57,594 bases of DNA from Armatimonadota bacterium (GTDB lineage Bacteria > Armatimonadota > UBA5829), in assembly GCA_012522555.1 (NCBI GenBank), contig JAAYKG010000060.1, positions 1 to 57,594 on the forward strand, given 5' to 3'. The notes under the pieces were generated by a model. The model searched no databases. It was given only the letters and a program-made list of their open reading frames with translations, and had not been told where the DNA came from. Of the stretch, positions 3,248 to 47,360 are shown piece after piece; the stretch's first letter is position 1; every line of letters begins with the position of its first letter. Made by a program: the position numbers and the translations under genes.

Positions 3248-4150
3248 ATGCTGACGAAAAAACAGGTTATAGACGGTCTGATCGACCTGGGGCTTGAAGC
3301 CGGAGATACGGTAATTGTTCACAGCTCCCTGCGCAGTTTCGGCGAGGTCGACGGCGGCGCGGATACGGTTATCGACGCCATATTAGAGACGATCGGGCCG
3401 GATGGCACTTTGGTTGTGCCGACATTCAACTACGACCCTGGGGTTTTCGACCCCGCAGCCACTCCATCTGTGGTGGGTATGATCACCGAGGCTGTTCGCA
3501 TACGCCCGGAGGCGATTCGCAGCAGCCACCCGACACATTCGGTGGCGGCGATCGGCAGGCTGGCCGAGCAAATCACCGAAGATCATGATAGAGTCGAGGC
3601 GTTTGCGAGAAATTCCGCGCTTCACAAAGCAGCGCGGGTGGGCGGGAAGATTCTCCAGCTCGGAGTCACACAGACCTCTAATTCTTCGATTCACGTAGCC
3701 GAGGAGCTTGCACAGGTTCCATACCTCGACAAACAGCGGCGCGTCGGCATCAAGCTGCGCAGTGGTAAGGTCGTGCACAAATGGGTCCGCAGACCCGGCT
3801 GCAGCCAGGGTTTCGAAGCTATAGACGAATTGCTATACGAACAAGACGCCATAAAAGAGACGATTATAGGCCGGTGTAAAGCCAGGCTGATGGGTGCCAG
3901 AGCCGTGATCGAAGTTGCCGTTGATATGCTTAGAGCCGACCCAGCGGCGCTGCTGTGCGACAGGCCGGAATGTGGGGCCTGCGCGGAGTCGCGGGCGATG
4001 ATTGACGCCACAGCCTCGGAGGAAGAGGAACGCCGCCTTACTGAAATGGCCGAAGAAGAGGAACGTATCCGCAGGCAGACCGAGGAAAAGCTCGCGGGAA
4101 GAGTCAATTTTTATGAAATCGACGGCCAGGACAGGTCCTCATCCAACTAA
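3248..4150 (+). CDS. AAC(3)-family aminoglycoside N-acetyltransferase-like protein with an acidic C-terminal tail
   Basis: VIVHSSLRSFGEVDGGADTVIDAILETIGPDGTLVVPTFNY matches the Antibiotic_NAT/AAC(3) N-terminal signature. Start moved to ATG 3248 because 3180-3211 is the rpsT terminator. Confidence 0.8.
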   Translation: MLTKKQVIDGLIDLGLEAGDTVIVHSSLRSFGEVDGGADTVIDAILETIGPDGTLVVPTFNYDPGVFDPAATPSVVGMITEAVRIRPEAIRSSHPTHSVAAIGRLAEQITEDHDRVEAFARNSALHKAARVGGKILQLGVTQTSNSSIHVAEELAQVPYLDKQRRVGIKLRSGKVVHKWVRRPGCSQGFEAIDELLYEQDAIKETIIGRCKARLMGARAVIEVAVDMLRADPAALLCDRPECGACAESRAMIDATASEEEERRLTEMAEEEERIRRQTEEKLAGRVNFYEIDGQDRSSSN

Positions 4151-4171: not shown

Positions 4172-5143
4172 TTAAATCATTTTCTCCGAATATGCGCCCA
4201 TACCGCGGAATTTTTTGTATCGAGTATCGAGCAACTCGGGGATGGGAACCTCTAAAAGCTCGTCGATGTGTTTTACTAAAGCAGCTTTGAGGTTTCTTGC
4301 CGCCAGATCCATATTCCGATGGGCGCCGCCCAGAGGTTCCTTGACGACCTCATCGACCAATCCAAGCTCGCGACCGCCTTCGCTGGTGACTTTCATCACC
4401 TCTGCTCCATCTTTGCCCCGAGCCGCGTCCTTCCATACGATTGCCGCGAAGCCCTCCGGAGGGATCACGGCATAGATGGAATGCTCCAACATAAGCACCC
4501 GATCTCCCAGCGCTATTCCGATTGCTCCGCCGCTTCCGCCTTCGCCGATCACCACCACAACAACAGGCGTCTTGAGCGTGGCCATTTCCATCATATTTCG
4601 AGCGATAGCCCCACTTATCCCGCGCTGTTCCGCACCGACGTTGACATCCGCCGCCGGGGTATCGACGAAGCAGATCACCGGCCTGTGGAATTTCTCCGCC
4701 AGCTTCATAAGCCGCAGGGCCTTGCGGTAGCCCTCAGGCTTGGCGCTGCCGAAGTTTCGATATCCTCGCTCCTTTATATCACGACCTTTTTGTTGACCAA
4801 CGAACATCACCTGTCTGTGGTCCAGGGTTGCTATTCCGCCAACCATCGCCGGGTCATCAGCAAACAGCCTGTCGCCGTGCAGTTCGGTATAATCATCAAA
4901 GATAGTGCGCACATAATCCAGCGTATACGGCCGTTTGGGATGTCTCGCGAGCAGGGTCTTGTCCCAAGCGGATAAATTAGCAAATATCTGCTCAATTAGT
5001 CGATCACGATCGGTCTCAAGCGCGAGAATATCTTCAGTGCGATCCTCTCCGCTCTCCGCTGTCAGCCGTTTGATCTCTGCGATCTGTTCGTCGAGTTCGG
5101 CGATTGGTTTCTCGAAGTCGAGTATGTTCCAGCTAGGCGGCAT
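4172..5143 (-). CDS. accA: acetyl-CoA carboxylase carboxyltransferase subunit alpha
   Basis: LDFEKPIAELDEQI ... RHPKRPYTLDY ... VICFVDTPAADVNVGAEQRG are typical AccA motifs. Start at ATG 5143 behind AGGAGGA. Overlaps the accD stop by 11 nt. Confidence 0.93.
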   Translation of the reverse strand: MPPSWNILDFEKPIAELDEQIAEIKRLTAESGEDRTEDILALETDRDRLIEQIFANLSAWDKTLLARHPKRPYTLDYVRTIFDDYTELHGDRLFADDPAMVGGIATLDHRQVMFVGQQKGRDIKERGYRNFGSAKPEGYRKALRLMKLAEKFHRPVICFVDTPAADVNVGAEQRGISGAIARNMMEMATLKTPVVVVVIGEGGSGGAIGIALGDRVLMLEHSIYAVIPPEGFAAIVWKDAARGKDGAEVMKVTSEGGRELGLVDEVVKEPLGGAHRNMDLAARNLKAALVKHIDELLEVPIPELLDTRYKKFRGMGAYSEKMI

Positions 5144-6005
5144 CTTCGTTGTCCTCCTGTTCTCGACAGAAAGCAAGCAGTTTGATCAAGGTCGGCTTGA
5201 GGTCTTTGCGAGGGACGATTCGGTCGATGTGGCCGTTTTGCAGTGCAAATTCCGCCCTGCGGAAATTATCCGGGACGTTGACCACCTGTGCTTGCTTCGC
5301 AACACGATCCGCGGTCAGCCCGGTCAGCAGGCCCGGCTCGGAGATAGTGAAATCGCCCAAAGACCCGTAACTGGCGAGGACTCCGGCCAGCGAGTTGTCC
5401 GTCAAGACGACTATATAAGGAATCCCGGCCTCGTGGAGCTTCGCACAGGCGGCCGAAGTCTTGGCCATCTGCATAAGTCCCGGCAGCCCCTCGGTCACTC
5501 GAATCCCGCCGGAGGCTATGAACATAATCACGGGCATATCGTTTTGTATGGCGAACTCCATCGCTCGCACCACTCTTTCGCCGACCACTCCGCCCATAGT
5601 GCCGGCCCAGAAGTGGAAATCCAGCACGCCAAGCACCACCGAGCGGCCGTCGATCTCTCCGACGCCGGTGATTATAGCTTCCTCCATACCGGTTTTTGCC
5701 CGCCACTTTGCGAGCTTGGGTTCATATTCGTCAAACTCCAGCACATTCACCGTGGCCAGATTCGCGTCCATCTCCTCGAACGCACCGTCATCGACTATGC
5801 TCTCGATGCGCTCCGCGGCCCCAAGTATATAGTGATAGCCACACTTGTTGCACACGCGCATATTTTTTAGAAGTTCTTTATTGAAGAGTATCTCGCTGCA
5901 CTGAGGACACTTTGTCCACAAACCGTCAGGTAGAGCATCCACGCTCTGCCTCGCTGTCTTACGCGCAGCTTTTGCCCTTCTGCCAAACCATGGCGCAGGC
6001 GTCAT
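5133..6005 (-). CDS. accD: acetyl-CoA carboxylase carboxyltransferase subunit beta
   Basis: N-terminal zinc ribbon CPQC...CNKCGYH followed by a carboxyltransferase domain. Adjacent to accA. Confidence 0.93.
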   Translation of the reverse strand: MTPAPWFGRRAKAARKTARQSVDALPDGLWTKCPQCSEILFNKELLKNMRVCNKCGYHYILGAAERIESIVDDGAFEEMDANLATVNVLEFDEYEPKLAKWRAKTGMEEAIITGVGEIDGRSVVLGVLDFHFWAGTMGGVVGERVVRAMEFAIQNDMPVIMFIASGGIRVTEGLPGLMQMAKTSAACAKLHEAGIPYIVVLTDNSLAGVLASYGSLGDFTISEPGLLTGLTADRVAKQAQVVNVPDNFRRAEFALQNGHIDRIVPRKDLKPTLIKLLAFCREQEDNEDAA

Positions 6006-22982: not shown

Positions 22983-23058
22983 TGGCTGCCGACCTAGGGC
23001 TTGAACCTAGAACCTTCTGATCCAGAGTCAGACGCTCTGCCAGTTGAGCTAGTCGGCA
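22983..23058 (-). tRNA. tRNA-Gln (anticodon CUG), CCA encoded
   Basis: Manual cloverleaf: acceptor TGCCGAC/GTCGGCA, D stem GCTC/GAGC, anticodon stem TCTGA/TCAGA with loop CTCTGGA, T stem CTAGG/CCTAG with loop TTCAAGC, discriminator G, then CCA. 76 nt. Confidence 0.93.
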
Positions 23059-26986: not shown

Positions 26987-27749
26987 AAGTGGCCACCTCC
27001 GCAGCAAATATCATATAGGCTTCAGCGCCTTTAGATTTCGGATCATAGGAAATTATAGGCTGCCCATGACTAGGAGCCTCACTCAATCAGACATTTCTGG
27101 GGACAAGCACAGGGGACACCCTGGCCCCAAAAAATCGCCTCACCTCATCGACCACCTGCTGAGAAAGATTGGTCCGATAATCGAACATAGTCAGCAACAC
27201 TTTTGCGACCTCAAGGCTGGGGTTCAGGTGCTGGTTCACTAATTCCACAGTCTTTAAAAGCTGGCTGATCCCCTCCAACGCATAATACTCACACTGTATT
27301 GGCAATATCACATACTCAGCCGCGGTAAGCACGTTTACAGTCAACAAGCCCAAAGGTGGCGGACAATCAATCAGAATGAACTCATATCGACCGCTCACTC
27401 TCTCCAGGGCCTGTTTCAGCTTCGTCTCCCGCGACATGGTGGACATCAATTCTATGTCAGCCCCGGCCAGGTCCAGTTTTGCAGGCGCGAGATCTAGCCC
27501 TTGAGTGTCGGTAGAAATTATCACCTGTTCTATGGGAACTTCGTTGATGAGCACGTCATACATGCACATCTTCAACTCCGACTTGATAACCCCCACACCA
27601 CTGGACGCATTCCCCTGCGGATCAATATCGACAAGTAATGTTCTTTCATCCTGGGCTGCCAAGCACGCCGCCACATTGACGGCAGTGGTCGTCTTTCCGA
27701 CACCACCCTTTTGATTTACAACAGCAAAAATCGATGCCATTCCTATCAC
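26964..27749 (-). pseudogene. parA: ParA/Soj partition ATPase interrupted by an in-frame TGA (27087-27089)
   Basis: Deviant Walker A (NQKGGVGKTTT). The ORF stops after ...VLVPRNV, but the same frame continues [40 protein letters not shown], which is the normal ParA C-terminus. The TGA replaces the conserved Arg of PRNVRLSEAPS. Confidence 0.85.
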
Positions 27750-27843
27750 CCACCGATCAGTAGTTCTTATACGGTGGACACTCCTTCGCGTTCTGCGATC
27801 TCGAACATGAGTTTAGATAATCTCATATAATGTAGACGCATGT

Positions 27844-28149
27844 CTATCTTATTTTGTCCGCAGCGCGCCTCCGGAGCATCATATCTGCAATTTCAGCACC
27901 GCTAACATTGTAGTCTCCCTTGGCAATTCGGTCCTTGATTTCCATAACGACCTCGTCCCTTGTTTCCGGCACATCTCTTAGCGCTGCCTCAGCCACAACC
28001 ATGCCCTGTTCCAACGGAGATAGCGACTGCGTGCTGTTGGTTGTTTGGCTCGATACTAGCCCCTTGGGTCGATTCTTCGGGAGAATCTTCTCTTGTGCTG
28101 CTCCCTGATTTACACAGGCCTTATTGGATTCGACGCCCGATATCTTCAT
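27844..28149 (-). CDS. flgM: anti-sigma-28 factor FlgM
   Basis: 101 aa with a disordered N-terminal half. The C-terminus EIKDRIAKGDYNVSGAEIADMML matches the FlgM family. GAGGAGG SD present. Confidence 0.8.
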   Translation of the reverse strand: MKISGVESNKACVNQGAAQEKILPKNRPKGLVSSQTTNSTQSLSPLEQGMVVAEAALRDVPETRDEVVMEIKDRIAKGDYNVSGAEIADMMLRRRAADKIR

Positions 28150-28242
28150 CTTACTAGTCCTCCTCGGCTTTCACACAGCCTCGGTGTCATCTGCCCCATC
28201 ATATTACGCCCCAAACGCCAAAAAGGCAAACCCCGAAGCTTG

Positions 28243-28330
28243 AGAACGGCAGCCCGGCCGACATACACGTCTTCGTGTTTAGCCCCGTGGCTTTGCGTCC
28301 CCTTCTTTCGAAGAGTTTGCCTTTATCATT
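28243..28330 (-). promoter_or_regulatory. c-di-GMP-I (GEMM-I) riboswitch aptamer in the flgM leader
   Basis: The minus strand reads AAAGGCAAACUCUUC-GAAA-GAAGGGGACGCAAAGCCACGGGGCUAAACACG-AAGA-CGUGUAUGUCGGCCGGGCUGCCG. It has a GCAAAC segment, a GAAA-capped hairpin, the near-invariant GGGACGCAAAGCC junction, a second hairpin and a GC-rich 3' strand. A paralogue lies at 44262. Confidence 0.8.
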
Positions 28331-28350
28331 TGATTAATCTCTATTCTTTG

Positions 28351-28564: not shown

Positions 28565-31500
28565 TTGCGCAAGTTGTTTTTGATTATTTTCTCCGTTTTG
28601 CTGGCTACCAGCGCGTCCGCATCGGGTTATTTTGCCGTGCCAACTCCGTCATTCGAGCCGGAATTCAAAACCATGGAGAGCGGGCTCTATATTTTGGCAC
28701 CTGGCTATAGCAATTATTCCTCTCCTGGTGATCCATCACTGCCGTTTCAAGATATAAGGGTTATCGTGCCTCCTGATGCCCTCCCGTCTTCAATCACAGT
28801 CGCTCTTACAGACAACAAACTCGACACAATAACCGTTGAAAAGCAGATCGTGCCTACACCTCCAATCAAGCTCGCTCTCGACGACTCCCCTGTCTTGGAT
28901 TGGGGCACAAACAAACAAATTGATTCTGGTCGAAACACACTCGTATACTTAGCCGACGAGCTATTTCCGGCCTCTCACGTCCAGCTCATCAGCGTAAATA
29001 ACCTTCGTAAATGGAAGATCGCCACCGTGCGCTACTTCCCCTTGCGATACAATCCGATCACATCCACTCTTGAACGAACTACCGGTGGGCAGATATCGCT
29101 TTCCTACAGCACAGTTATTCATACAAATGACCTTTCACCGGAGCGCCTTGCTGATGATATGTTCGCGGACAAAGTTCAATGCCTTACAGCCAACTACTCC
29201 GACGCCAAGTCGTGGTACACTTCGCCAAAATCTATTCGCAGTACCACACTTATGCAATCCAGCTCCGATCCGTGTTACATGATCATTACCACATCCGCCG
29301 TAACCTCTGCCAGCAACCAACTGCAAGCCTTTGCCTCCCACAAAGCAAATCGGGGTTTTACGGTAGAAATAGCGACCGAGGATGACTGGGGCGGCGGCAT
29401 CGGGGATGATGCCGCCAACAACATTCGCTCGTATTTAGCCGATAATTATATATCAAAACAGATTCAATACGTGCTGCTTATCGGAAATCCAGACCCTACG
29501 GTCGGCGATGTGCCGATGAAGATGCTTTGGCCTCGCTACTACAGCATCGATCCGTACCGCGAAGCTCCGTCCGATTATTTCTACGCCGATCTAACTGGAA
29601 ATTGGGACCTTGACGGTGACGGCTACTATGGCCAGCAAGAAGGCGATTTCGGCCCTGAGGGTGTGGATGTTTTTCCCGAAGTCATTGTGGGCCGGATTCC
29701 CTACTATGGCGACATTTCCGAAGTCGATTCAATCCTGCAAAAGACTATCAGCTACGAAACGGGTGCATTTAGAGGGGATTGGGTTAGAAATGTCTTGCTT
29801 AGTATGAAGCCATCGGACAGTTATACACCGGGATATCATCTTGGCGAGGCAATAAAAACCGATGCTGTGGCTCCGGCGGATATGCATGCTACTACAGTTT
29901 ATGATAGCGACTACGGCCTCACACCCGCACCGGATTACACTCCCTGCAGCTTCGAAAATGTTATTTCCGCCTGGCAGCAGCACGCCGGTTTCCATTTCTG
30001 GTGGACCCACGGCAACGAGACCACTGCAGCCGACGTCATCAGCACAGACCGGTGCCAAAATCTCGACGACATCCACCCATCATTCATCTTTCAATGCTCG
30101 TGTCTCAACGGCTACCCCGAAAGAGACGACAATTTAGGCTTTGCTTTGCTGAAGTGTGGGGCTATTGCGACCAATTCCGCCAGCCGCGTTTCCTGGTACT
30201 ATCCCGGTCAGACCAACTTCGCCAATTCGGACTCCAATTCCGGCCTCGCCTATACATACGCGACCAAGCTGATCCGAGATCACTTGCCGTGCGGAGACGC
30301 GCATTATGCAACGCTCGCCGAGGTTCCAAATGTTATTTGGATGAATCACTGCGTCTTCAATCTCTACGGAGACCCGTCGGTGCAGTACCCTTCCGCCCCG
30401 ACAATATCCCATTCTCCGTTGGGCAATACCGATGTTACAACGCAGCCATACGCCATACGGGCTACCATCGCAAGTACTACACCCATAGCTCCTGCCAGCC
30501 CGAAACTCTATTGGAAAACATCCGCGTCAAATGCGTTCACAGAGCAAACTCTGCAGTCTTTAGGGGGAGGCGCATATGCCGGCTCGATCCCCGCACAAGG
30601 TCTGAATACGATCGTTTCCTATTATCTCGAAGCCACCGACAGCGTCGGTGAAACAACGCTTCTTCCCGCCGATGCTCCGACCAACGTGATATCCTTCGAG
30701 ATCAGAGCCGACGTAGAGCCTCCGGTGATAACACACACTCCCCTGGCCGATACGCCAAACAAGTTCGGCCCTTATCCGGTCGAGGCGTCTATCACCGATG
30801 ATCTTGGGATCCTGTCCGCCTCCGTACACTACAAAATCAATGATGGGCCTTGGCGGCATCTTGAGATGGAGCGCACATCCGGCGATATTTTTTCTGCTCT
30901 TATGCTCGGCCCGACAGCGTCCGGGGATACGGTTAGCTATTATCTCACTGCAACCGATATTTCGCTGGAATCTAGAACCACGCGGCTTCCGGATGTCGGC
31001 GCCTATTCGTTTAACATCGGCAAAAAGATTTACGTCGGAGTCTTCAACTCTAGTGAAACACCGTACTATTTCAGCGGCGGCAACTCGAACGCCTGGGGGC
31101 CAGTTTCCAATATTCTTAATACAGACCCGGCCCGTAGATTTCAAGTCAGCGTGATCACGGATCTCGATGGAGATAACGGATCGATCGGGATAACTGGGCA
31201 GGATGTGCTGTTTCTACCAGACAACGCCGTTCCATACACTTGCATGCAGACGGTATCGGATTGGTTCGAGCCTGGGAAAACAATTGTCGCGATGGACAGT
31301 GCGGCTTCCTATGCCGCATACACCGGGTGGATGTGGCCTGGAGCAGTCGGCACCAATGGTTATGCGATCATACCTGGCCTAGGTTATTGGACCAACGACG
31401 CAGACGCGAACGACCAGCAGATTTGGGCGGCCGATAGTATAACCAAGGATTACACTATTGGACAAGTAATAGGTTCGGCAGCGGGGGACGCCGTTTTTTA

Positions 31501-32623
31501 CACAAATAAGTTGCCCACGGATGCTCACGCGCTTTCCGGCAGCGCAACCAAACCAAACATATGTCATGCCGCATATCGAGATGTCCCTGGCAAGGGCCGC
31601 ATTGTCGTCCTCGGGCCGTATATCCAACCCATCGAAAGCCAGTATTCGATCATTCGCGAATCCGCCGTCCCTCCCACGTCCCCACGCGGCCTCCAGCTAA
31701 TCTCCCCTAACGGTGGAGAATCATTCGCTGCCGGCGCACAGGTCAAAATCAGATTCACCGCTACAGGAGGTTGGATAGAGTCCGATAGGATCAAAATAGA
31801 GTATTGTACGGGCCTTGACGCGGTCTGGAGACAGGTTGCGGGCGCACAGTCTCTCGACTACGACTCGGAAAGTTTCACGTGGAACACTGCGAACCTTCCG
31901 GGAAGTCACGGCTACCTCGTGCGCATAAGCACGCTTGATGAAGCGCTTTCGGATCAGTCCGATATGCCGTTTTCCATTGTTCCCAATATAGACATATCCT
32001 CCGCCAAATCTGTCCCAGACGGGGATCTGATCAGATTACCAGGCAAGGTGGTAATTTGCGGTATAGATGGATTCACATATATCGAGGAGCCGGATCGGCG
32101 TGCCGGTATTCGGATAATTGGAGCCACAGGGTTATCCATTTCGACTCTGGTCAATATAACGGGCTGCTTAGACACAATCGACAGGGAGCGCGTTGTTGAT
32201 GCCGATTCTGTGGAGGTGCTCGGGCCGGGGGCTCAAGTGCGACCTTATGTGATGAGTTACCGGGCCATTGGTGGAACAGATTTCGGTTTGCAATCAGCAG
32301 TGATGGAATACAGGTTACACCAGTCCAGCCAAGCCGTGCCGACTATAGGACTAAACAATATAGGGCTTTTAGTCCGGGCGTCCGGCAGGGTAGTCGCAAG
32401 TGGTGTGGATTGGTTCTACATTGACGACGGTTCGAGGTGTAACGACGGCTCCGGCATGATCGGGGTCAAGGTTCTATGCCCGAACTCGAATCCGCCGGCT
32501 CAAGGTGAATTTGTGGTGATCAACGCGGTCAGCAGCGCATATTTTGAGCGCAACGGACTGTGGCGCGCTTTGGTGCTGCCAGGCTCGCATCACTTGATGA
32601 CGCTCGACAAATCTCAAGAGTAG
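28565..32623 (+). CDS. large secreted gingipain-like cysteine peptidase (peptidase C25 family) with Ig/Fn3-like repeats and C-terminal beta modules
   Basis: TTG start and Sec signal (LFLIIFSVLLATSASASG). C25-like core: YMIITTS..., YVLLIGNPDP, DYFYADLTGNWDLDGDGYYG, VIVGRIPYY. Candidate catalytic His (WWTHGNE) and Cys (FIFQCSCLNG). 1352 aa. Confidence 0.8.
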   Translation: MRKLFLIIFSVLLATSASASGYFAVPTPSFEPEFKTMESGLYILAPGYSNYSSPGDPSLPFQDIRVIVPPDALPSSITVALTDNKLDTITVEKQIVPTPPIKLALDDSPVLDWGTNKQIDSGRNTLVYLADELFPASHVQLISVNNLRKWKIATVRYFPLRYNPITSTLERTTGGQISLSYSTVIHTNDLSPERLADDMFADKVQCLTANYSDAKSWYTSPKSIRSTTLMQSSSDPCYMIITTSAVTSASNQLQAFASHKANRGFTVEIATEDDWGGGIGDDAANNIRSYLADNYISKQIQYVLLIGNPDPTVGDVPMKMLWPRYYSIDPYREAPSDYFYADLTGNWDLDGDGYYGQQEGDFGPEGVDVFPEVIVGRIPYYGDISEVDSILQKTISYETGAFRGDWVRNVLLSMKPSDSYTPGYHLGEAIKTDAVAPADMHATTVYDSDYGLTPAPDYTPCSFENVISAWQQHAGFHFWWTHGNETTAADVISTDRCQNLDDIHPSFIFQCSCLNGYPERDDNLGFALLKCGAIATNSASRVSWYYPGQTNFANSDSNSGLAYTYATKLIRDHLPCGDAHYATLAEVPNVIWMNHCVFNLYGDPSVQYPSAPTISHSPLGNTDVTTQPYAIRATIASTTPIAPASPKLYWKTSASNAFTEQTLQSLGGGAYAGSIPAQGLNTIVSYYLEATDSVGETTLLPADAPTNVISFEIRADVEPPVITHTPLADTPNKFGPYPVEASITDDLGILSASVHYKINDGPWRHLEMERTSGDIFSALMLGPTASGDTVSYYLTATDISLESRTTRLPDVGAYSFNIGKKIYVGVFNSSETPYYFSGGNSNAWGPVSNILNTDPARRFQVSVITDLDGDNGSIGITGQDVLFLPDNAVPYTCMQTVSDWFEPGKTIVAMDSAASYAAYTGWMWPGAVGTNGYAIIPGLGYWTNDADANDQQIWAADSITKDYTIGQVIGSAAGDAVFYTNKLPTDAHALSGSATKPNICHAAYRDVPGKGRIVVLGPYIQPIESQYSIIRESAVPPTSPRGLQLISPNGGESFAAGAQVKIRFTATGGWIESDRIKIEYCTGLDAVWRQVAGAQSLDYDSESFTWNTANLPGSHGYLVRISTLDEALSDQSDMPFSIVPNIDISSAKSVPDGDLIRLPGKVVICGIDGFTYIEEPDRRAGIRIIGATGLSISTLVNITGCLDTIDRERVVDADSVEVLGPGAQVRPYVMSYRAIGGTDFGLQSAVMEYRLHQSSQAVPTIGLNNIGLLVRASGRVVASGVDWFYIDDGSRCNDGSGMIGVKVLCPNSNPPAQGEFVVINAVSSAYFERNGLWRALVLPGSHHLMTLDKSQE

Positions 32624-39466: not shown

Positions 39467-41701
39467 ATGAGATCCTTTATGCCACTCATCGGTAGGCGCG
39501 CCAAAAAGAACTCGGATAAAAGCGCTCCATCCACAAGAATAGATGTAAAAAGAGCCGGGCTGGCATTTGCAACAATTGCGATCCTGTCGGTGTTGCTGTC
39601 TATTCACATGTTGCCGAGCAGAATCGATCTCAAAGTCGGAGATGTCGCCGCCGATGATATTGTCGCCCCTCGCGCCGCCAAATATGTCGATTCCTCGGAA
39701 ACCAGGCTAAAGAAAACCAAAGCCGCGGCGGGTGTAGGCAAGGTATATGACGCACTGCCAAGCGCGGCAGACCAGGCGATCGCCACTTTGAAGTCGATTT
39801 TCGCGATTGTTGAGGTCGTGCGTCGGGACTATCCGGACCAGTCGGCGGAGGCAAAGATTGGCGCCCTTCGGAACAGATTGGGCACAGGTGTCGGTTCGCG
39901 TATTTCAGACTCTACATATTTGTCTTTGCTTTCGGCGGATGCCGCCGCCCTGAGGCAAATAGAGGACGAGTCGCTGCATATAGTCAGCGCAGCCATGAGC
40001 AAAGAAATTCGCGACAACCCCTCGGATCTTCGGTCAGCTCAAGATGAAGTTGTCAATGAATCCCGCAGACTGATAGCGGATCCTCGAAAAGCGGCTCTGG
40101 TTGCAGAGCTTTCTTCGGATTCGATCAAGCCCAATCGAATATACAACCCCAGCCGCACAATCGATCTCCAGGAAGCTGCGCAGGCCCGTGTTCGACCGAC
40201 CCACAAATTGATTTCCCGCGGCGAATTGGTGATAGCCAAGGGGGAACCCGTCTTGGAAGAGCACATGGAGAAGCTCCAGGCGTTGGGGCTGCGCAATCCC
40301 CGCATAGACTATCGAACTGTAAGTTCGCTCACTGCTTTAGTAATGCTGGCGGTGCTGCTGGTCGGGGGGTATTTGTCCAGATATTACCCGGAGGTCTATC
40401 GCAGCACAAAATCTCTGTTTTTGCTCGCATTGCTGGCGGTGATCGGCACCCTCGCCCTGCGCATAAGCGGCAGCTTGCTGGGGATCAACCTTACAATGGA
40501 TCAGGTTGGTTTTCTGGGTGTGCTGTGGGTGGTGACAGTGGGCATGTTGGTCAGCGCTTTGGTCAACCCCCAGGTGTCGGTTGTGATCGCGGCTTTGCTT
40601 TCGATTGTGTTGTCGCTGATGCTCAACGGTGAACTGCGCTTTGCTGTCAGCAGTTTTATGACTGCGATTGTGGGCATTTTAGGGGTAGCCGATATTCGAG
40701 ATCGCACGGACCTGGCGCGGGCGGTTGGATTTTTGTCTGCGACGGGTGTATTGTTGGTTTGGGTGACGGGCGGAATAGCCAACGACTCCTATTTTAATAT
40801 GCGCATGGGCACGTTCTGGGCCGGCGTGGTTGTGCCCATAGGCGCTGGGGCGATATTTCTTATCGGCACGGTACCGCTTGAGAGGCTTTTCGGCCTGACA
40901 ACGCATCTTTCTTTGTTGGAGCTTGCTGATACAAACAAACCGCTGCTGCGTCGATTGGTGATCGAAGCGCCGGGGACGTATACGCATAGTATGGCGGTGG
41001 GGCATCTCGCCGAGACAGCGGCGCAGGTCATTGGGGCTGATCCGCTTATGGCGCGTGTGGCGTCGTATTATCACGATATTGGCAAGATTCGCAGGCCGCA
41101 TTTTTTCGTCGAAAACCAGAACATTGAAAATGTGCACGATAAGATAAGCCCCACGCTGTCGGCGTTGGTGATAACGTCGCATATAAAAGATGGGGTGGAA
41201 ATCGCCAGAGATTATAAACTGCCCAAAGTGGTTATCGACGTCATCAGCCAGCATCACGGGACATCGTTGGTTCAATATTTCTATGAGCAGGCTATCGGCA
41301 CGCAGGATCCCGCGACCGAGTTGGAGAGCCAGTTCAGATACACCGGCCCAAAGCCGAAATCAAAGGAAGCTGCTTTGGTGATGCTTGCGGATTCAGTTGA
41401 AGCCGCGTCCAGAGCGATGTCCAAACCGACCCGTGCCACCATTGAGTTGATTGTAAACAAAATTGTGGCTGATAAACTGCGGGATGGACAGCTCGATGAG
41501 TCGGATCTTACATTCAAGGAAGTTAGCAAAGTCACAGGCGCATTTATAAAAGCCCTTATCGGCACACTACATGCGCGGATCGATTATGCCGAAGTAGTGG
41601 ACAAGAAAGCGACCAATGGAAATTCTAATAACAAAACACGAGCCAATGGCTTTGAGGACCAGCCGGCTGAAGAAGCGGGCACTGAAAGTGCTGCAATCTG
41701 A
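39467..41701 (+). CDS. 7TM-receptor HD-domain phosphohydrolase (PgpH/YqfF type)
   Basis: Extracellular N-domain, seven TM helices, then an HD domain (HSMAVGHLAE...YYHDIGK...SQHHG). Gene order pgpH-ybeY-dgkA. Confidence 0.9.
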   Translation: MRSFMPLIGRRAKKNSDKSAPSTRIDVKRAGLAFATIAILSVLLSIHMLPSRIDLKVGDVAADDIVAPRAAKYVDSSETRLKKTKAAAGVGKVYDALPSAADQAIATLKSIFAIVEVVRRDYPDQSAEAKIGALRNRLGTGVGSRISDSTYLSLLSADAAALRQIEDESLHIVSAAMSKEIRDNPSDLRSAQDEVVNESRRLIADPRKAALVAELSSDSIKPNRIYNPSRTIDLQEAAQARVRPTHKLISRGELVIAKGEPVLEEHMEKLQALGLRNPRIDYRTVSSLTALVMLAVLLVGGYLSRYYPEVYRSTKSLFLLALLAVIGTLALRISGSLLGINLTMDQVGFLGVLWVVTVGMLVSALVNPQVSVVIAALLSIVLSLMLNGELRFAVSSFMTAIVGILGVADIRDRTDLARAVGFLSATGVLLVWVTGGIANDSYFNMRMGTFWAGVVVPIGAGAIFLIGTVPLERLFGLTTHLSLLELADTNKPLLRRLVIEAPGTYTHSMAVGHLAETAAQVIGADPLMARVASYYHDIGKIRRPHFFVENQNIENVHDKISPTLSALVITSHIKDGVEIARDYKLPKVVIDVISQHHGTSLVQYFYEQAIGTQDPATELESQFRYTGPKPKSKEAALVMLADSVEAASRAMSKPTRATIELIVNKIVADKLRDGQLDESDLTFKEVSKVTGAFIKALIGTLHARIDYAEVVDKKATNGNSNNKTRANGFEDQPAEEAGTESAAI

Positions 41702-42815: not shown

Positions 42816-44171
42816 GTGGACCCAGACCCAAACCGTATAGTGACAGGGATAATCATAATCGCGGTGCTTGTGATGCTCAATGCGTTCTTCGCCGCGGCTG
42901 AGATGTCGCTGGTTTCCGTAAGAAGAACTCGAATCAAGCAGTTGGTGGAAGAGGGTAATGCGCGCGCGCGTACGGTTTTAGAACTGCTTGAGCACCCCAC
43001 GAACTTTATGGCGACCGTCCAGATTGGCTTGACGCTGGTCGGATTTTTGGCATCAGCGTTTGCGGCGGTGAGCATAGCCGAGCCTGTCGCAAAGTTTTTG
43101 CATACCTCAAAAGCGATTGCCGTAATCTTGGAAACTGTTGTGCTGAGCTTGATAACCCTCGTCTTTGGAGAGATCGCGCCGAAAAGTGTGGCGATACAAC
43201 GCGCCGAGAAACTGTCGCTGGCGTTCGGCGGCACGGTGAAACTGTTGTCAATTCTCACTCTGCCGGCGGTCAAACTGGTCAGTTTCCTGAGCGATCTGAT
43301 CGTTCGTCCGTTTGGTGTGCATGCGCGCTTCAACAGCCCGATTCTCACTGAAGAAGAACTCAAAATGATGGTAGAAGCCGGCGAGGAGGAAGGTGTCATC
43401 GAGGAAGAGGAAAAGGAAATGATACATTCCATCTTCGATTTCACCGACACGGTGGCTAGGCAGGTAATGGTTCCTCGAACCGATATGGACGCGGCGCCGG
43501 TTACTAGCACACTCGACGAACTGCTGGATATTATCACCGAGACGGGCCGCTCCAGAATCCCTATTTATGAGGATAACGTCGACAATATTATCGGAGTTGT
43601 TCACGCGAAGGATCTGATCCCGGTATTGAGGCAGGATAAGCATAAATATGATCTGCGGGCGGTGATGCGTCAGGCGTATTTTATCCCGGAGACCAAAGAT
43701 GTTGATGAATTGCTGGCGGATTTCAAGCTGGGCAATGTCCAGATGGCGATTGTGCGTGATGAATATGGCGGCACTGCGGGGTTGGTTACCGTCGAGGATT
43801 TGCTCGAGGAAATCGTCGGCGAGATTCGGGATGAATATGATATGGAGGAGCCGCTGATTGATGTTGAGGATGTTGACCATGCCATTGTCAGTGCGAGGAT
43901 GAGCATCGACGACCTCAACGAGCAAATGGGTGTGGATATCCCGGAAAGTGAAGAATTCGAGACCATCGGCGGTTTCGTCTTTGATTTGTTTGGACGGCAG
44001 CCCGAAGAAGGAGAGGTGATTAGTTGGAGCAACCTCGATTTCGTCGTTCACAGCCTCGATGGCGGTCGACTACACCGAATACAGATCATCCGAACGGAAA
44101 GACCAAAAGAATCCGGCGAGGAAGGGGCCGACACAAACGGCAAATCGAAGAAAAATAACGGCTCCAAATAA
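42816..44171 (+). CDS. hemolysin-family / CNNM (DUF21-CBS-CorC_HlyC) membrane protein
   Basis: GTG start. DUF21 TM region (LNAFFAAAEMSLVS), a CBS pair and a CorC_HlyC C-terminal domain (ETIGGFVFDLFGRQPEEGE). Confidence 0.92.
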   Translation: MDPDPNRIVTGIIIIAVLVMLNAFFAAAEMSLVSVRRTRIKQLVEEGNARARTVLELLEHPTNFMATVQIGLTLVGFLASAFAAVSIAEPVAKFLHTSKAIAVILETVVLSLITLVFGEIAPKSVAIQRAEKLSLAFGGTVKLLSILTLPAVKLVSFLSDLIVRPFGVHARFNSPILTEEELKMMVEAGEEEGVIEEEEKEMIHSIFDFTDTVARQVMVPRTDMDAAPVTSTLDELLDIITETGRSRIPIYEDNVDNIIGVVHAKDLIPVLRQDKHKYDLRAVMRQAYFIPETKDVDELLADFKLGNVQMAIVRDEYGGTAGLVTVEDLLEEIVGEIRDEYDMEEPLIDVEDVDHAIVSARMSIDDLNEQMGVDIPESEEFETIGGFVFDLFGRQPEEGEVISWSNLDFVVHSLDGGRLHRIQIIRTERPKESGEEGADTNGKSKKNNGSK

Positions 44172-44261
44172 CTTGCATCCCCCTATTCATCGACCAATTT
44201 CCCGTATTCCTCACAGGCTGGCCCGCCGCCCGGTGTGGCATAAGCTATATGAAGATCAACC

Positions 44262-44352
44262 GACAATCGCAAACCCTGGGAAACCAGGGGACGCAAAGCT
44301 ATAGGGGCTAAATTCCGACGATACGTCGGGACAAGTCTGCCAGGCTGCCGAA
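44262..44352 (+). promoter_or_regulatory. c-di-GMP-I (GEMM-I) riboswitch aptamer upstream of the HD-GYP/GAF/GGDEF operon
   Basis: CGCAAACCCUGG-GAAA-CCAGGGGACGCAAAGCUAUAGGGGCUAAAUUCCGACG-AUA-CGUCGGGACAAGUCUGCCAGGCUGCCG. It shares the core GGGGACGCAAAGC..GGGGCUAAA...GGCUGCCG with the flgM-leader copy. Confidence 0.8.
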
Positions 44353-44437
44353 GTTGATGCGTGTTTTCACCCGAATAATTCATTACAGGCATACGGGATG
44401 AAAATGCGTGGTCTGCTGCGGCAGCCTGGCAGTTTTA
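44337..44437 (+). promoter_or_regulatory. candidate riboswitch expression platform (anti-aptamer / terminator-like helix)
   Basis: CGGCAGCCUGGCAG (44419-44432) is the perfect reverse complement of the aptamer 3' strand CUGCCAGGCUGCCG (44337-44350) and is followed by UUUUA. Confidence 0.4.
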
Positions 44438-44589
44438 CGCCAGGACGCATTTATTCTCGCAGATTGGCGGAAGCCTGCCGGAATGGAATCCGATGTCACT
44501 TTTGTCGATGATGAAGTTTTTATCGATTGGCTCGAAGTATCTGTTTTGCGCGAGGAGCCCGCGCTGCCACATAGAAGGGCAGATGCAAT

Positions 44590-46443
44590 ATGAGAAATGG
44601 GCGCAAAATCTTGTTTTGCTTTATAACGGGGCTGGCGGCGTCGATGTTGGGGCTGATGTTTTGGAGCCGTTGTCCTGTGGCTGGGTGGAGCTTTCTCATC
44701 GCTGCGCCGTGGCTGATGTTTGCGTGGATACTTTTTTTACATCGAGATACCTCGTCCGAATGTGTGGTAAGGCTTGCGGCGGCTGATAGTCTGTCGGAGG
44801 CGTATCGCCGCGCCACAGTAGCCCTTGCGTCGGCTATTGGCGCCAAAGATTCCTACATTCATCCCTGTGTGAACCGTGTGCCGCGAATATGTGAGCTTAT
44901 CGCCGATCACATCGATCTGGACCATGATGCTGTGGAGAAGCTCAAGCTCGCCGCACTGATAAGAGATGTCGGCAAATTGGGAGTGCCGGATCATATTTTG
45001 CTTAAGCCAGGCCCGCTGGACGCCGAAGAGTTCGCCAAGATGCGCAACCATGCCGCTATCGGCGCCGATTTGCTGCGCCAGGCCGATTTGCCGGATGATG
45101 TCGTGGATATGGTGCTTTACCATCACGAAAAGTACGACGGCACCGGTTACCCTGAGCGGCTGGCGGCGAATGATATCCCTTTGGGGTCGCGGATAATCTC
45201 AGTTGCGGTGGTGTATGATGCATTGATATCCGACAGGTGCTATCGAAGTGGCTGGACGCATTCCGACGCGATTTCCCATATACAGGAGCTTTCCGGCGCA
45301 GCATTCGACCCGGCGGTCGTCGATGCGTTTTTTGCCGTTGAGTCGCAGATTTTGGAATTGGGGGCGGAGCTTGCACGCGATATGAAGTCGCAAGTGAACG
45401 GGAGTGCCGAGGTCAGTTGCGCCGCGGTGGACACAATCGCCCAGGCCAATCGGGAACTGATATCACTATTTGAGATCACCCAGACTCTATCCAGCACCCT
45501 GGAGATCGATGAGGTGCTGGCGTTGTTGGCCAACAGGACACGCAGGCTCGTGCAAGGTTCGACGTGTGTGGTATTGATGGTTGACAAAACACATTCTAAA
45601 TCTCTCATCGCCAAAACGGCGGTCGGCCGGTTTGAAGAGATGTTTGTCGGAGCACGGGCAAGATACGGCAAGGGAATCACCGGCCGCGCCGCTCAAAAGG
45701 CCCAACCACGGGCCGGGCACTACGACCCTGATGATCTTGTATTTAACTATAGCGAAACTCCTCCCGAGCTGGATTTCAAATCTTGCCTGGCCGTGCCGAT
45801 AGTAAGCTACGGAGACGTGCTCGGCACAATTAATCTATATGATGTCTGCCGAAGATCGTTTACCGAAGATGAGATGCGAGTGCTGACGTTTATTGCCCAT
45901 CAGGCAGCCCTGGCTGTACATAACGCGCGGGCCTTTGAAGAGGCTCGAGATTTCGCCTTGCGCGATCCGCTGACTAATCTGCGCAACGGTCGATTCCTGC
46001 GGCATTATCTGGACAGGGAGCTGAATCGCAGCTTCAGGTTCGATGAGCCTCTGTCGGTGTTGGGTATCGATTTGGACAATTTCAAGGGTGTAAATGATTT
46101 GAAAGGGCACGAAGCCGGAGACAGGGTGCTTAAGGATGTGGCGGATATATTCAGACGTGAGCTTCGGGATTATGATGTAATCGTGCGTAACGGCGGGGAC
46201 GAATTTGTAGCGGTGCTTCCTGAGACCGGTTATTCGGAGGCGAAGCGCACTGCACAGAGGATTCAATCGGCGATTGAGAACTATGCTCGCACGAAGGTCA
46301 ACGATGTGCCTCGCTTTGGGGTGAGCGTGGGGGTTGCGTCGTATCCGGCTGATGGAACTGATGCGAGCGCCCTGCTAGCCTCCGCGGATGCGGCTATGTA
46401 TGCCGACAAACGATCTCGGAATCTACTTCGCAAGGCTGCTTAG
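44590..46443 (+). CDS. membrane-anchored HD-GYP phosphodiesterase / GAF / GGDEF diguanylate cyclase multidomain protein
   Basis: Two N-terminal TM helices. HD-GYP domain (IRDVGKLGVPD...YHHEKYDGTGYPERL), a GAF-like region, and a GGDEF domain with intact RNGGDEF plus an RDYD I-site 5 residues upstream. Confidence 0.9.
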   Translation: MRNGRKILFCFITGLAASMLGLMFWSRCPVAGWSFLIAAPWLMFAWILFLHRDTSSECVVRLAAADSLSEAYRRATVALASAIGAKDSYIHPCVNRVPRICELIADHIDLDHDAVEKLKLAALIRDVGKLGVPDHILLKPGPLDAEEFAKMRNHAAIGADLLRQADLPDDVVDMVLYHHEKYDGTGYPERLAANDIPLGSRIISVAVVYDALISDRCYRSGWTHSDAISHIQELSGAAFDPAVVDAFFAVESQILELGAELARDMKSQVNGSAEVSCAAVDTIAQANRELISLFEITQTLSSTLEIDEVLALLANRTRRLVQGSTCVVLMVDKTHSKSLIAKTAVGRFEEMFVGARARYGKGITGRAAQKAQPRAGHYDPDDLVFNYSETPPELDFKSCLAVPIVSYGDVLGTINLYDVCRRSFTEDEMRVLTFIAHQAALAVHNARAFEEARDFALRDPLTNLRNGRFLRHYLDRELNRSFRFDEPLSVLGIDLDNFKGVNDLKGHEAGDRVLKDVADIFRRELRDYDVIVRNGGDEFVAVLPETGYSEAKRTAQRIQSAIENYARTKVNDVPRFGVSVGVASYPADGTDASALLASADAAMYADKRSRNLLRKAA

Positions 46444-46646: not shown

Positions 46647-47360
46647 ATGGCTCGAATATTTATGTTTGCATCATGGGCGGCGGCAGCCTCGCTGGCCGGG
46701 ATTGCCGTCGTTAGCACGGATATCAAATGGCGTGTGGCTGCCGTGATTCTAGCTGGTTTGGTTGTTTTGCCGAGCCTGTTGATCGCATTCCGGTCTATAG
46801 CTGCCCGCGAACCATCGCAAGAAACTCAGCCGATACGGCAAACCGAAGCGTCATCAAATGAACAGCAGACCGGGGTATATATGGACCCGTTGACCGGGTT
46901 AGCTACCAGGCATTATTTGACGATGTTTCTGAATCGAGAGATCAGCCGATGCAAGAGATCCGGCGCGGAATTAAGCCTGGCGATATTTGACTTTCCGGAT
47001 TTGTCGAAGGTCGAGGAGCAATCGGCCCTTACGGCTATGGCTGATGTCGGTGCGAAGATGAAATCTATGCTTCGAGACTACGATCTGGTGGCGTTATTCT
47101 CATTAGGCCGCCTCGCTATCGTGCTGCCGGAGACGAACGTGTCGAAGTCGCTGGAGATTGTCGAAAGGCTGCATCAACTGGCGACCGGCGTCTGTGCGGA
47201 CGACAAGCCGCTCACCGCCACAGCCGGCCTGGCATCATTCCCCACTCATGGCGACACCTCGGAATGGCTGATCACCTCCGCCCACCGAGCGCTGAACCAG
47301 TGCAGAGCGGGTTCATCAAAAGACGTCCACGTGCTTGAGAACTATCAACTCGCGGGCTGA
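46647..47360 (+). CDS. membrane-anchored degenerate GGDEF-domain protein (GGDEF replaced by SLGRL; RxxD I-site retained)
   Basis: Two TM helices, then DPLTGLATRHYL...LRDYDLVALFSLGRLAIVLPETN...AGLASFP. The fold is conserved, the active-site residues are lost, and RDYD is kept. Confidence 0.8.
   Translation: MARIFMFASWAAAASLAGIAVVSTDIKWRVAAVILAGLVVLPSLLIAFRSIAAREPSQETQPIRQTEASSNEQQTGVYMDPLTGLATRHYLTMFLNREISRCKRSGAELSLAIFDFPDLSKVEEQSALTAMADVGAKMKSMLRDYDLVALFSLGRLAIVLPETNVSKSLEIVERLHQLATGVCADDKPLTATAGLASFPTHGDTSEWLITSAHRALNQCRAGSSKDVHVLENYQLAG

Follow-up and report, generated by a model that had tools for sequence, protein, structure and literature searches.

G20 of Vc2, the c-di-GMP-I (GEMM-I) aptamer of the Vibrio cholerae tfoY leader, contacts G-alpha of the ligand cyclic di-GMP (c-di-GMP) at its Hoogsteen edge through two hydrogen bonds (PMC6140456), while C92 forms a Watson-Crick pair with G-beta and A47 stacks between the two ligand bases (PMC3764141, PMC6140456). 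Replacement of G20 by A gives the GEMM-Ib riboswitches, which sense cyclic GMP-AMP (cGAMP) or are bispecific (PMC6140456, PMC3764141), and many natural A20 aptamers retain c-di-GMP binding (PMC6140456). In Geobacter, the pilM GEMM-Ib riboswitch is an ON switch that acts on transcription; its aptamer and terminator exclude each other, the terminator capturing the cytosine equivalent to C92 (PMC9262584). Here we describe a GEMM-I aptamer that has a C at the position equivalent to G20. It is located at 44255-44358 (plus strand) of a contig of 57,594 nucleotides (nt) from an uncultured Armatimonadota bacterium (JAAYKG010000060.1; this whole stretch is called the window, and the aptamer the window aptamer), in the leader of a gene whose product carries HD-GYP, GAF, and GGDEF domains. 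We read it, with a probability of roughly 65%, as a functional c-di-GMP riboswitch that exerts transcriptional, ligand-ON control over a cyclase operon.

An initial annotation of the window, made from the sequence alone, had proposed a second c-di-GMP-I aptamer at this locus, and the RF01051 (c-di-GMP-I) search that it asked for bore this out: Rfam cmscan of the whole window gave a significant match at 44258-44352 (plus strand), with 64.8 bits against a gathering score of 35 bits (E = 1.9e-10), covering positions 1-87 of the 87 positions of the model. The RNA string given in that annotation agrees exactly with 44268-44350 of the plus strand, and all four sub-elements it named can be read from the window sequence: the hairpin CCCUGG-GAAA-CCAGGG (44274-44289), the junction GACGCAAAGC (44290-44299), CCGACG-AUA-CGUCGG (inside an 8-base-pair [bp] helix at 44313-44331), and the 3′ strand GGCUGCCG (44343-44350). 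Our own covariance model, built from Armatimonadota aptamers, scored the window aptamer at 108.4 bits. The boundaries of the complete aptamer, including P1, come from Rfam, this model, folding, and covariation. Three Rfam matches in the window exceeded the gathering score (two to RF01051, the other being in a flgM leader, and one to a tRNA); a relaxed local Rfam scan added only meaningless miRNA models, which reflect a long hairpin just downstream of the aptamer.

Folded in isolation, the aptamer forms P1, P1a, and P1b. P1 pairs 44255-44262 with 44349-44358, leaving A44351 and A44352 bulged; P1a consists of G44269-C44270 paired with G44293-C44294 plus the hairpin at 44274-44289, capped by the GAAA tetraloop (44280-44283); and P1b (44297-44346) carries an extended distal helix of 8 bp (44313-44320 with 44324-44331). 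The 5′ half of the tetraloop receptor in P1b, CUAAA, is present, and its 3′ half reads ACAAG against the consensus UAUG, as it does in many orthologs. The aptamer is intergenic, the upstream operon ending at 44171. It lies in the 5′ leader of the downstream gene (44590-46443), on the same strand and 238 nt upstream, and its predicted expression platform overlaps the aptamer.

Homologues of the 617-amino-acid (aa) protein encoded by this gene form a tight family (47-99% identity), the named members of which are all from Armatimonadota. We compared 24 leaders including that of the window: those of 10 GTDB genomes, one JGI contig, and 12 further contig loci found by exact-protein look-up (L161-L174, minus the duplicates L163 and L164). 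A scan of JGI metagenome contigs with the ortholog alignment gave at least one true ortholog (L081), generic HD-GYP patterns dominating the matches listed. RF01051 was found by Rfam upstream of the ortholog in 10 of the 10 GTDB loci having upstream sequence, and our covariance model found the aptamer in all the remaining leaders, two of which are interrupted by contig ends; thus, the aptamer is linked to the orthologous gene in 24 out of 24 leaders. In contrast, the loci of distant HD-GYP/GAF/GGDEF paralogs, from Acidobacteriota and others (100 loci, 576 kb), gave only three weak GEMM-I matches. Since these loci hold almost no GEMM-I aptamers, the linkage is specific to the Armatimonadota ortholog group. 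A pattern scan of viral contigs for the GEMM-I core gave chance matches only.

Compensatory changes in homologous leaders, which the initial annotation had also called for, support P1, P1a, and P1b. In a structure-blind MAFFT alignment of 18 aptamers, 96.5% of the stem cells are paired and double changes occur in 12 of 24 pairs, values reached by none of 500 shuffles; sliding the stem partners lowers the pairing to 23-48%. A model-fitted alignment of 32 aptamers gives similar figures (96.7% paired, double changes in 14 of 24 pairs). Since both the covariance-model match and the compensatory changes are there, the aptamer is real, and we regard it as almost certainly a genuine member of GEMM-I. 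The low score of the L006 aptamer is an artefact, because an assembly gap (a run of N at L006:270-290) interrupts its P1a hairpin. The aptamer of L174 (L174:1237-1328; 50.8 bits) looks degenerate: it reads GAACGCAUAGC, has a truncated P1b, and carries A at position 20. This leader retains the long hairpin described below, and may represent a riboswitch in decay.

Folding and comparison revealed a long terminator-like hairpin of about 96 nt (44337-44432, plus strand) that is mutually exclusive with the aptamer. Its base helix of 14 bp pairs CUGCCAGGCUGCCG (44337-44350, the 3′ strand of the aptamer) with CGGCAGCCUGGCAG (44419-44432), an exact 14-nt complement followed by the letters UUUUACGCC; its inner helices pair 44352-44373 with 44394-44417, around an apical loop at 44374-44393. 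The segment 44337-44350 comprises the 3′ strand of P1b, the equivalents of G91 and C92, and the 3′ strand of P1. In the minimum-free-energy fold of the leader the long hairpin forms at the expense of P1, of most of P1b, and of the pocket for the ligand, while the P1a hairpin and the distal helix of P1b persist. An equivalent hairpin is found in 24 of 24 leaders, with 95.2% of cells paired and double changes in 9 of 22 pairs (equalled by 0 of 500 shuffles); for example, an A-to-G change in the shared aptamer strand of L006 is matched by a U-to-C change in the downstream terminator strand. The tract UUUU (44433-44436), followed by ACGCC, lies directly 3′ of the hairpin, and in the set of 24 leaders U makes up 47.5% of the 10 nt that come next to the conserved CCUGG on its 3′ side (the last pairs of the helix and the start of the tail), vs 22% within the hairpin.

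If the window leader is folded with the aptamer enforced, two small hairpins arise from the downstream strand thus freed, with the U tract in a loop. The small alternative hairpin CCUGGC-AGUUUUAC-GCCAGG (44425-44444, from this constrained folding) forms only if the aptamer holds its 3′ strand, and buries the U tract in its loop; it is found in the window and in L161 only, nothing equivalent being present in the other orthologs. The terminator fold is more stable than the enforced-aptamer fold by 13.5-27.5 kcal/mol, and so the aptamer can win only kinetically and with stabilization by the ligand. Taken together, these models make a terminator-type ON switch rather likely. Translational control by sequestration of a Shine-Dalgarno sequence was also considered, and is not favoured because no ribosome-binding site falls within the hairpin and about 155 nt more separate it from the main start codon downstream.

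The leader would be transcribed from its own promoter-like element, an extended -10 sequence TGGCATAAG (44236-44244, plus strand, with the hexamer CATAAG at 44239-44244) recognized by its conservation: TGGCATAA (44236-44243 in the window) occurs without mismatch 20-35 nt upstream of P1 in 19 of 22 orthologous leaders. About 20 nt above it, comparison by eye showed a conserved box, TTCCTCACAGG at 44207-44217 (ortholog consensus GGTAGTWTCYTCAGGT), at a similar distance from the aptamer in most of the 22 leaders, which may be an operator or an upstream promoter element. Because the extended -10-like element and the second box are both conserved upstream, the riboswitch probably heads its own transcript, with a putative start at about 44249-44252.

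The gene under control (44590-46443, plus strand; Pfam HD_5, GAF_2, and GGDEF) encodes a 617-aa membrane protein with a membrane segment at its N-terminus. Its GGDEF motif, an RxxD I-site five residues upstream, and the guanine-binding residues N502 and D511 are invariant in 40 of 40 orthologs, so the protein should act as a product-inhibited diguanylate cyclase specific for GTP. In its HD dyad, as in that of its nearest relatives, His is replaced by Arg (residue 125, codon 44962-44964); this HD to RD position was confirmed by alignment to the HD-GYP structures 4mcw, 5z7c, and 4r8z. Of the 40 orthologs, 25 have R at residue 125, 14 have H, and one has K, with the GYP motif and the GGDEF domain intact. 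Given the missing His, phosphodiesterase activity is doubtful in the lineage of the window, which suggests that this half of the protein is inactive or repurposed there. The second gene of the putative operon (46647-47360, plus strand) encodes a 237-aa degenerate GGDEF protein (Pfam GGDEF, 56.3 bits). Its translation has SLGRL in place of GGDEF and keeps an I-site-like RxxD motif, RDYD; it may serve as a receptor for c-di-GMP. In most related contigs the main gene is likewise followed by a GGDEF gene, there of about 268 aa.

These parts suggest the following mechanism. Without ligand, 44337-44350 would pair with 44419-44432, and transcription would end at the resulting long hairpin and its UUUU tail. 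Once ligand is bound, the aptamer would retain its 3′ strand, the base of the terminator would be blocked, the U tract would be held in the loop of the small hairpin, and RNA polymerase would read through into an operon comprising the GGDEF/GAF/HD-GYP cyclase, the degenerate GGDEF protein, and perhaps a short leader peptide. Should c-di-GMP be the ligand, this would amount to positive feedback on the cyclase, capped by the I-site. A transcriptional ON switch is the simplest reading, and its logic is that of the pilM GEMM-Ib riboswitch of Geobacter.

Several observations weigh against this explanation. The U tract is short in the window (four U) and the tail is U-poor in L166-L168; a hairpin of 96 nt is long for an intrinsic terminator; and a generic terminator scan of 44000-44800 did not call it, because its stem and loop exceed the limits of the scan. 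A consensus promoter scan of the same interval was also empty, which leaves conservation as the basis of the promoter. The simple terminator model does not account for a nearly invariant apical motif, GGGCUGCAGGUAAUCGGAC, of which the window has a diverged version, ACAGGCAUACGGGAUG, at 44384-44400 (alignment columns ~57-78). This motif (CUGCAGG) resembles the aptamer 3′ strand CUGCCAGG minus one C, and might act as a decoy that engages the terminator strand, or as a site bound by a protein; for a decoy or antiterminator role there is no covariation to judge by, the motif and CUGCCAGG both being nearly invariant. Finally, the aptamer has C at position 20 and so lacks the G that contacts G-alpha, and the searchable literature yielded neither a description of, nor binding data for, a natural C20 aptamer.

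Position 20 corresponds to C44268 (plus strand; Rfam alignment column 11, the base 5′ of the G-C pair of GCAAAC). The window aptamer thus has neither the ligand-contacting G20 of the c-di-GMP type nor the A20 of GEMM-Ib (A14 in Gs1761), whereas the flgM-leader copy has the canonical G. Of the orthologous leaders, 22 are complete at the 5′ end; 16 of these have G at position 20, four have A (L001, L002, L008, and L174), and two have C, while all the non-orthologous aptamers from Armatimonadota have G there. The second C20 leader is that of L161, which was assembled independently from a different sample and encodes a downstream protein of 99% identity; since L161 carries the same C while differing elsewhere in the leader, C20 does not stem from an assembly error. 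Leaders with A or C are interspersed among relatives that bear G, which suggests that position 20 changed several times independently, at least three or four times.

The rest of the pocket is highly conserved. The equivalents of A47 and A48 (44295-44296, plus strand) are A in 24/24 and 23/24 leaders, those of G91 and C92 (44347-44348, plus strand, inside the 5′ strand of the competing helix) are each kept in 24/24, and so are other nucleotides with tertiary or pocket roles (C44, the bulged G83, and the bulged A of P1, each in 24/24; roles according to PMC3764141). Position 20 is the sole ligand-contacting base that varies among the orthologous leaders. In the literature it separates ligand sub-classes within one fold, and C44268 therefore qualifies the assignment of the ligand and not membership in the fold.

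We consider c-di-GMP probably the physiological ligand, because the same canonical synthase stands behind G20, A20, and C20 leaders and no other synthase was found in the window: neither DncV/CD-NTase nor a Hypr-GGDEF with Ser at the D511 equivalent is encoded in its 57.6 kb. The canonical GGDEF domains of orthologs behind A20 leaders likewise argue that the signal is still c-di-GMP. The change from G20 to C would most likely weaken or retune c-di-GMP binding rather than abolish it, with a threshold different from that of the flgM copy. Smith and colleagues are said to have found in 2010 that G20 mutants of Vc2 lose affinity and still bind in the nanomolar range.

The alternative that survives best keeps the fold and the ON mechanism and alters the specificity, C20 and A20 retargeting the aptamer to 3′,3′-cGAMP or another cyclic dinucleotide, or making it bispecific. 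In its favour, position 20 alone varies among the ligand contacts, in scattered lineages, and A20 is a known determinant of cGAMP recognition or bispecificity (PMC6140456). Two strains have moreover stably kept C20, and the changes found in other parts of their leaders preserve the structure. From base chemistry, the Watson-Crick edge of C (N4-H donor, N3 acceptor) would offer the donor/acceptor pattern of the GEMM-Ib A20, and C in its protonated form could recognize G-alpha as in a C+·G Hoogsteen pair. However, a pyrimidine is shorter than A or G, so that the contact geometry at position 20 must change; many natural A20 aptamers still bind c-di-GMP (PMC6140456); the window holds no cGAMP synthase; and the regulated GGDEF domain is canonical in all orthologs. 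We therefore hold altered specificity to be unlikely. We see a slightly smaller chance that the C20 form is a GEMM-I sub-class with a distinct preference, be it for 3′,3′-cGAMP, for a mixed or pyrimidine cyclic dinucleotide, or for c-di-GMP in a pH-dependent way through the protonated C, in which case the two riboswitches of the window would report different signals.

Considerably less probable is that G20C cripples binding, leaving a decayed or ligand-independent aptamer in a constitutive attenuator or under another regulator, such as a protein on the apical motif. A direct ligand contact is lost, the window aptamer has the lower Rfam score of the two copies in the window (64.8 vs 88.2 bits), the ortholog in L174 does look degenerate (50.8 bits), and the terminator model does not account for the conserved apical motif; but all the other pocket and tertiary nucleotides are intact. 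Between the window and L161, the aptamer differs by one change in 111 nt (0.9%), a G·U to A-U change that keeps the pair, vs a divergence of 5.8-8.3% in the neighbouring spacer; the remainder of the hairpin differs by six changes in 72 nt, including the compensatory G44373A/C44394U. Because the aptamer is so strongly conserved between strains, loss of function is unlikely.

About as improbable, and if anything a little more so, is a ligand-OFF switch, in which the long hairpin would be an antiterminator and the small hairpin at 44425-44444, followed by ACGCAUUUAUUCU, the terminator. The small hairpin does form with the aptamer enforced, and a U-rich stretch, UUUAUUCU, lies 5 nt downstream of it; but a 6-bp stem with its U run displaced by 5 nt makes a poor terminator, hairpin and tail occur in the window and L161 only, and the conserved feature is instead the U-rich tail abutting the long hairpin. 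This OFF model was set aside because its hairpin is not conserved. A chance motif match without RNA function is scarcely credible given the E-value of 1.9e-10, the correct orientation and position ahead of a c-di-GMP gene, and the conservation and covariation in 24 orthologous leaders.

Returning to the preferred reading, a c-di-GMP-responsive ON switch, we compared the window aptamer with the other c-di-GMP-I aptamer of the window (28245-28331, minus strand; RF01051, 88.2 bits). The latter lies 96 nt upstream of a 101-aa open reading frame (ORF; 27844-28149, minus strand) that matches Pfam FlgM with 43.4 bits (cut-off 25). In the minimum-free-energy fold of this leader (28345-28130, minus strand), the segment GGGGUUUGCCUUUUUGG (28218-28234, minus strand), which ends in a U run, is complementary to the 5′ core of the aptamer, AAAGGCAAAC. 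It is a candidate competing terminator strand, and the predicted fold suggests a second ligand-ON terminator. The predicted pairing of GGGGUUUGCCUUUUU in the flgM leader with the 5′ core appears unlike the arrangement of the window aptamer, whose competitor takes the 3′ strand. No c-di-GMP-I copy beyond these two was found in the 57.6-kb window by Rfam or our covariance model.

The initial annotation had described the two copies as paralogous, with nearly identical cores, and as one ligand-responsive regulon. They do share the family-defining core, which is the shared part of two sequences that are 63% identical overall; at ligand-contact position 20, however, they differ (C44268 vs G). The window aptamer is closer to the orthologous leaders of other species (72-79% identity) than to the flgM copy (63%), so the two are old, independent members of the family and not products of a recent duplication; they are paralogous in the sense of an ancient relationship only. 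A single regulon is plausible, since both leaders look like ligand-ON terminator switches, and unproven, since C at position 20 may change affinity or specificity. If both respond to c-di-GMP, high c-di-GMP would also raise FlgM and damp the flagellar late genes, in keeping with the part that c-di-GMP usually plays.

Small genes are annotated in related contigs, and past the terminator hairpin, ahead of the main gene, most orthologous leaders contain a conserved small ORF of 61 aa (for example, L166:1250-1435, L168:1243-1428, L171:194-379, and L172:1159-1347). It reads MFWTFYGAREDR...SAPKTAEQLLFLLED..., is preceded by a GGGGG Shine-Dalgarno sequence 7-9 nt upstream, and has no Pfam match. In the window and its closest relatives, the ORF at this position is just a short one of poor conservation. 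In the window, ORF lists give a possible 36-aa leader ORF of uncertain status (44483-44593, plus strand), whose stop overlaps the main start as ATGA; Pfam gave no match for it. Its start codon differs between the window and L161, and its N-terminal substitutions are all non-synonymous (5/5). It may be a remnant of the 61-aa ORF. Three other ORFs overlapping the leader, 44183-44392 (minus strand), 44059-44304 (plus strand), and 44493-44786 (plus strand), are open and without further support, and were judged spurious.

Upstream of the riboswitch, the operon that ends at 44171 encodes a 7TM-HD protein, YbeY, DgkA-PAP2, and a CNNM/CBS/CorC protein. This ybeY-dgkA-corC operon is headed by the gene for the 7TM-HD protein, a PgpH-like protein of 744 aa with 7TMR-HDED, 7TM-HD, and HD domains (39467-41701, plus strand), of a family that includes cyclic-di-AMP phosphodiesterases. 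At the other riboswitch, flgM is followed directly by parA and parB (27087-28149, minus strand), an unusual neighbourhood for flgM, and a 1352-aa protein with Peptidase_C25 (gingipain-like) and propeptide domains is encoded divergently from this region (28565-32623, plus strand). The third Rfam match is a tRNA-Gln (anticodon CUG; 22983-23058, minus strand), also called by ARAGORN. Elsewhere in Armatimonadota, the locus L012 has tandem GEMM-I aptamers (4755-4858 and 4864-4971), and L015 has three aptamers (3306-3408, 5640-5745, and 5796-5901), the best-scoring model for two of them being c-di-GMP-I-GGC (RF03167); GEMM-I aptamers seem to be diverse in this phylum.

In terms of annotation, the genome of an uncultured Armatimonadota bacterium gains a second GEMM-I riboswitch, for which we define a promoter-like element, an aptamer, a competing terminator, and an operon. 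An I-site cyclase and the anti-sigma factor FlgM both switched on by c-di-GMP would make a simple sessile/motile circuit, notable in a phylum with almost no genetics. The orthologous leaders, which differ among ligand contacts only at position 20 (G, A, or C), form a natural series for affinity and specificity. A new specificity of C20, if true, would add a sub-class to GEMM-I, as the A20 (cGAMP) variants did in 2015.

Among known systems, Vc2 shares with the window aptamer the three-helix architecture, with P1, P1a with its GAAA tetraloop, and P1b with its receptor region, as well as the GCAAAC and GACGCAAAGC cores and the equivalents of A47, A48, C92, C44-G83, and the bulged A with G14-C93 (PMC3764141, PMC6140456). 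It differs in having G20 instead of C and the receptor 3′ half UAUG instead of ACAAG, and in not having the 8-bp, triloop-capped extension of the distal P1b helix. It has been described as an off-switch (bioRxiv 10.1101/617340), whereas the platform in the window is a long terminator hairpin, predicted to be ON. The Geobacter GEMM-Ib riboswitches (Gs1761, pilM) have the same fold and, like the window aptamer, a base other than G at position 20, and the arrangement of pilM is the one predicted for the window leader; however, that base is A20 (A14 in Gs1761) and not C, and the genes concern exoelectrogenesis and pili, whereas the gene in the window is for a canonical diguanylate cyclase.

Cd1, from the flgB operon of Clostridioides difficile, is likewise a GEMM-I riboswitch that acts by transcription termination and is linked to motility, as the sister copy in the window precedes flgM; but Cd1 is an OFF switch whose aptamer and terminator coexist (PMC9262584), whereas both leaders of the window look ON, with a terminator competing with the aptamer. 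Bc1, a GEMM-I riboswitch of the Bacillus cereus group, resembles the window leader in its unusually long expression platform; it has two separate terminators 28 bp apart (PMC11218506), whereas the window has a single long hairpin built on the aptamer's own 3′ strand. c-di-GMP-I-GGC (RF03167) and c-di-GMP-I-UAU, of the same clan (CL00126), are natural GEMM-I variants with changed core nucleotides; the parent RF01051 scores best for the window aptamer, the variant models score lower, and its only core deviation is C20. Overall, the window RNA has neither the G20 of the c-di-GMP type nor the A20 of the cGAMP type, yet it is GEMM-I by its fold, score, covariation, other pocket nucleotides, and placement: a further member of an established class, and a sound but ordinary annotation.

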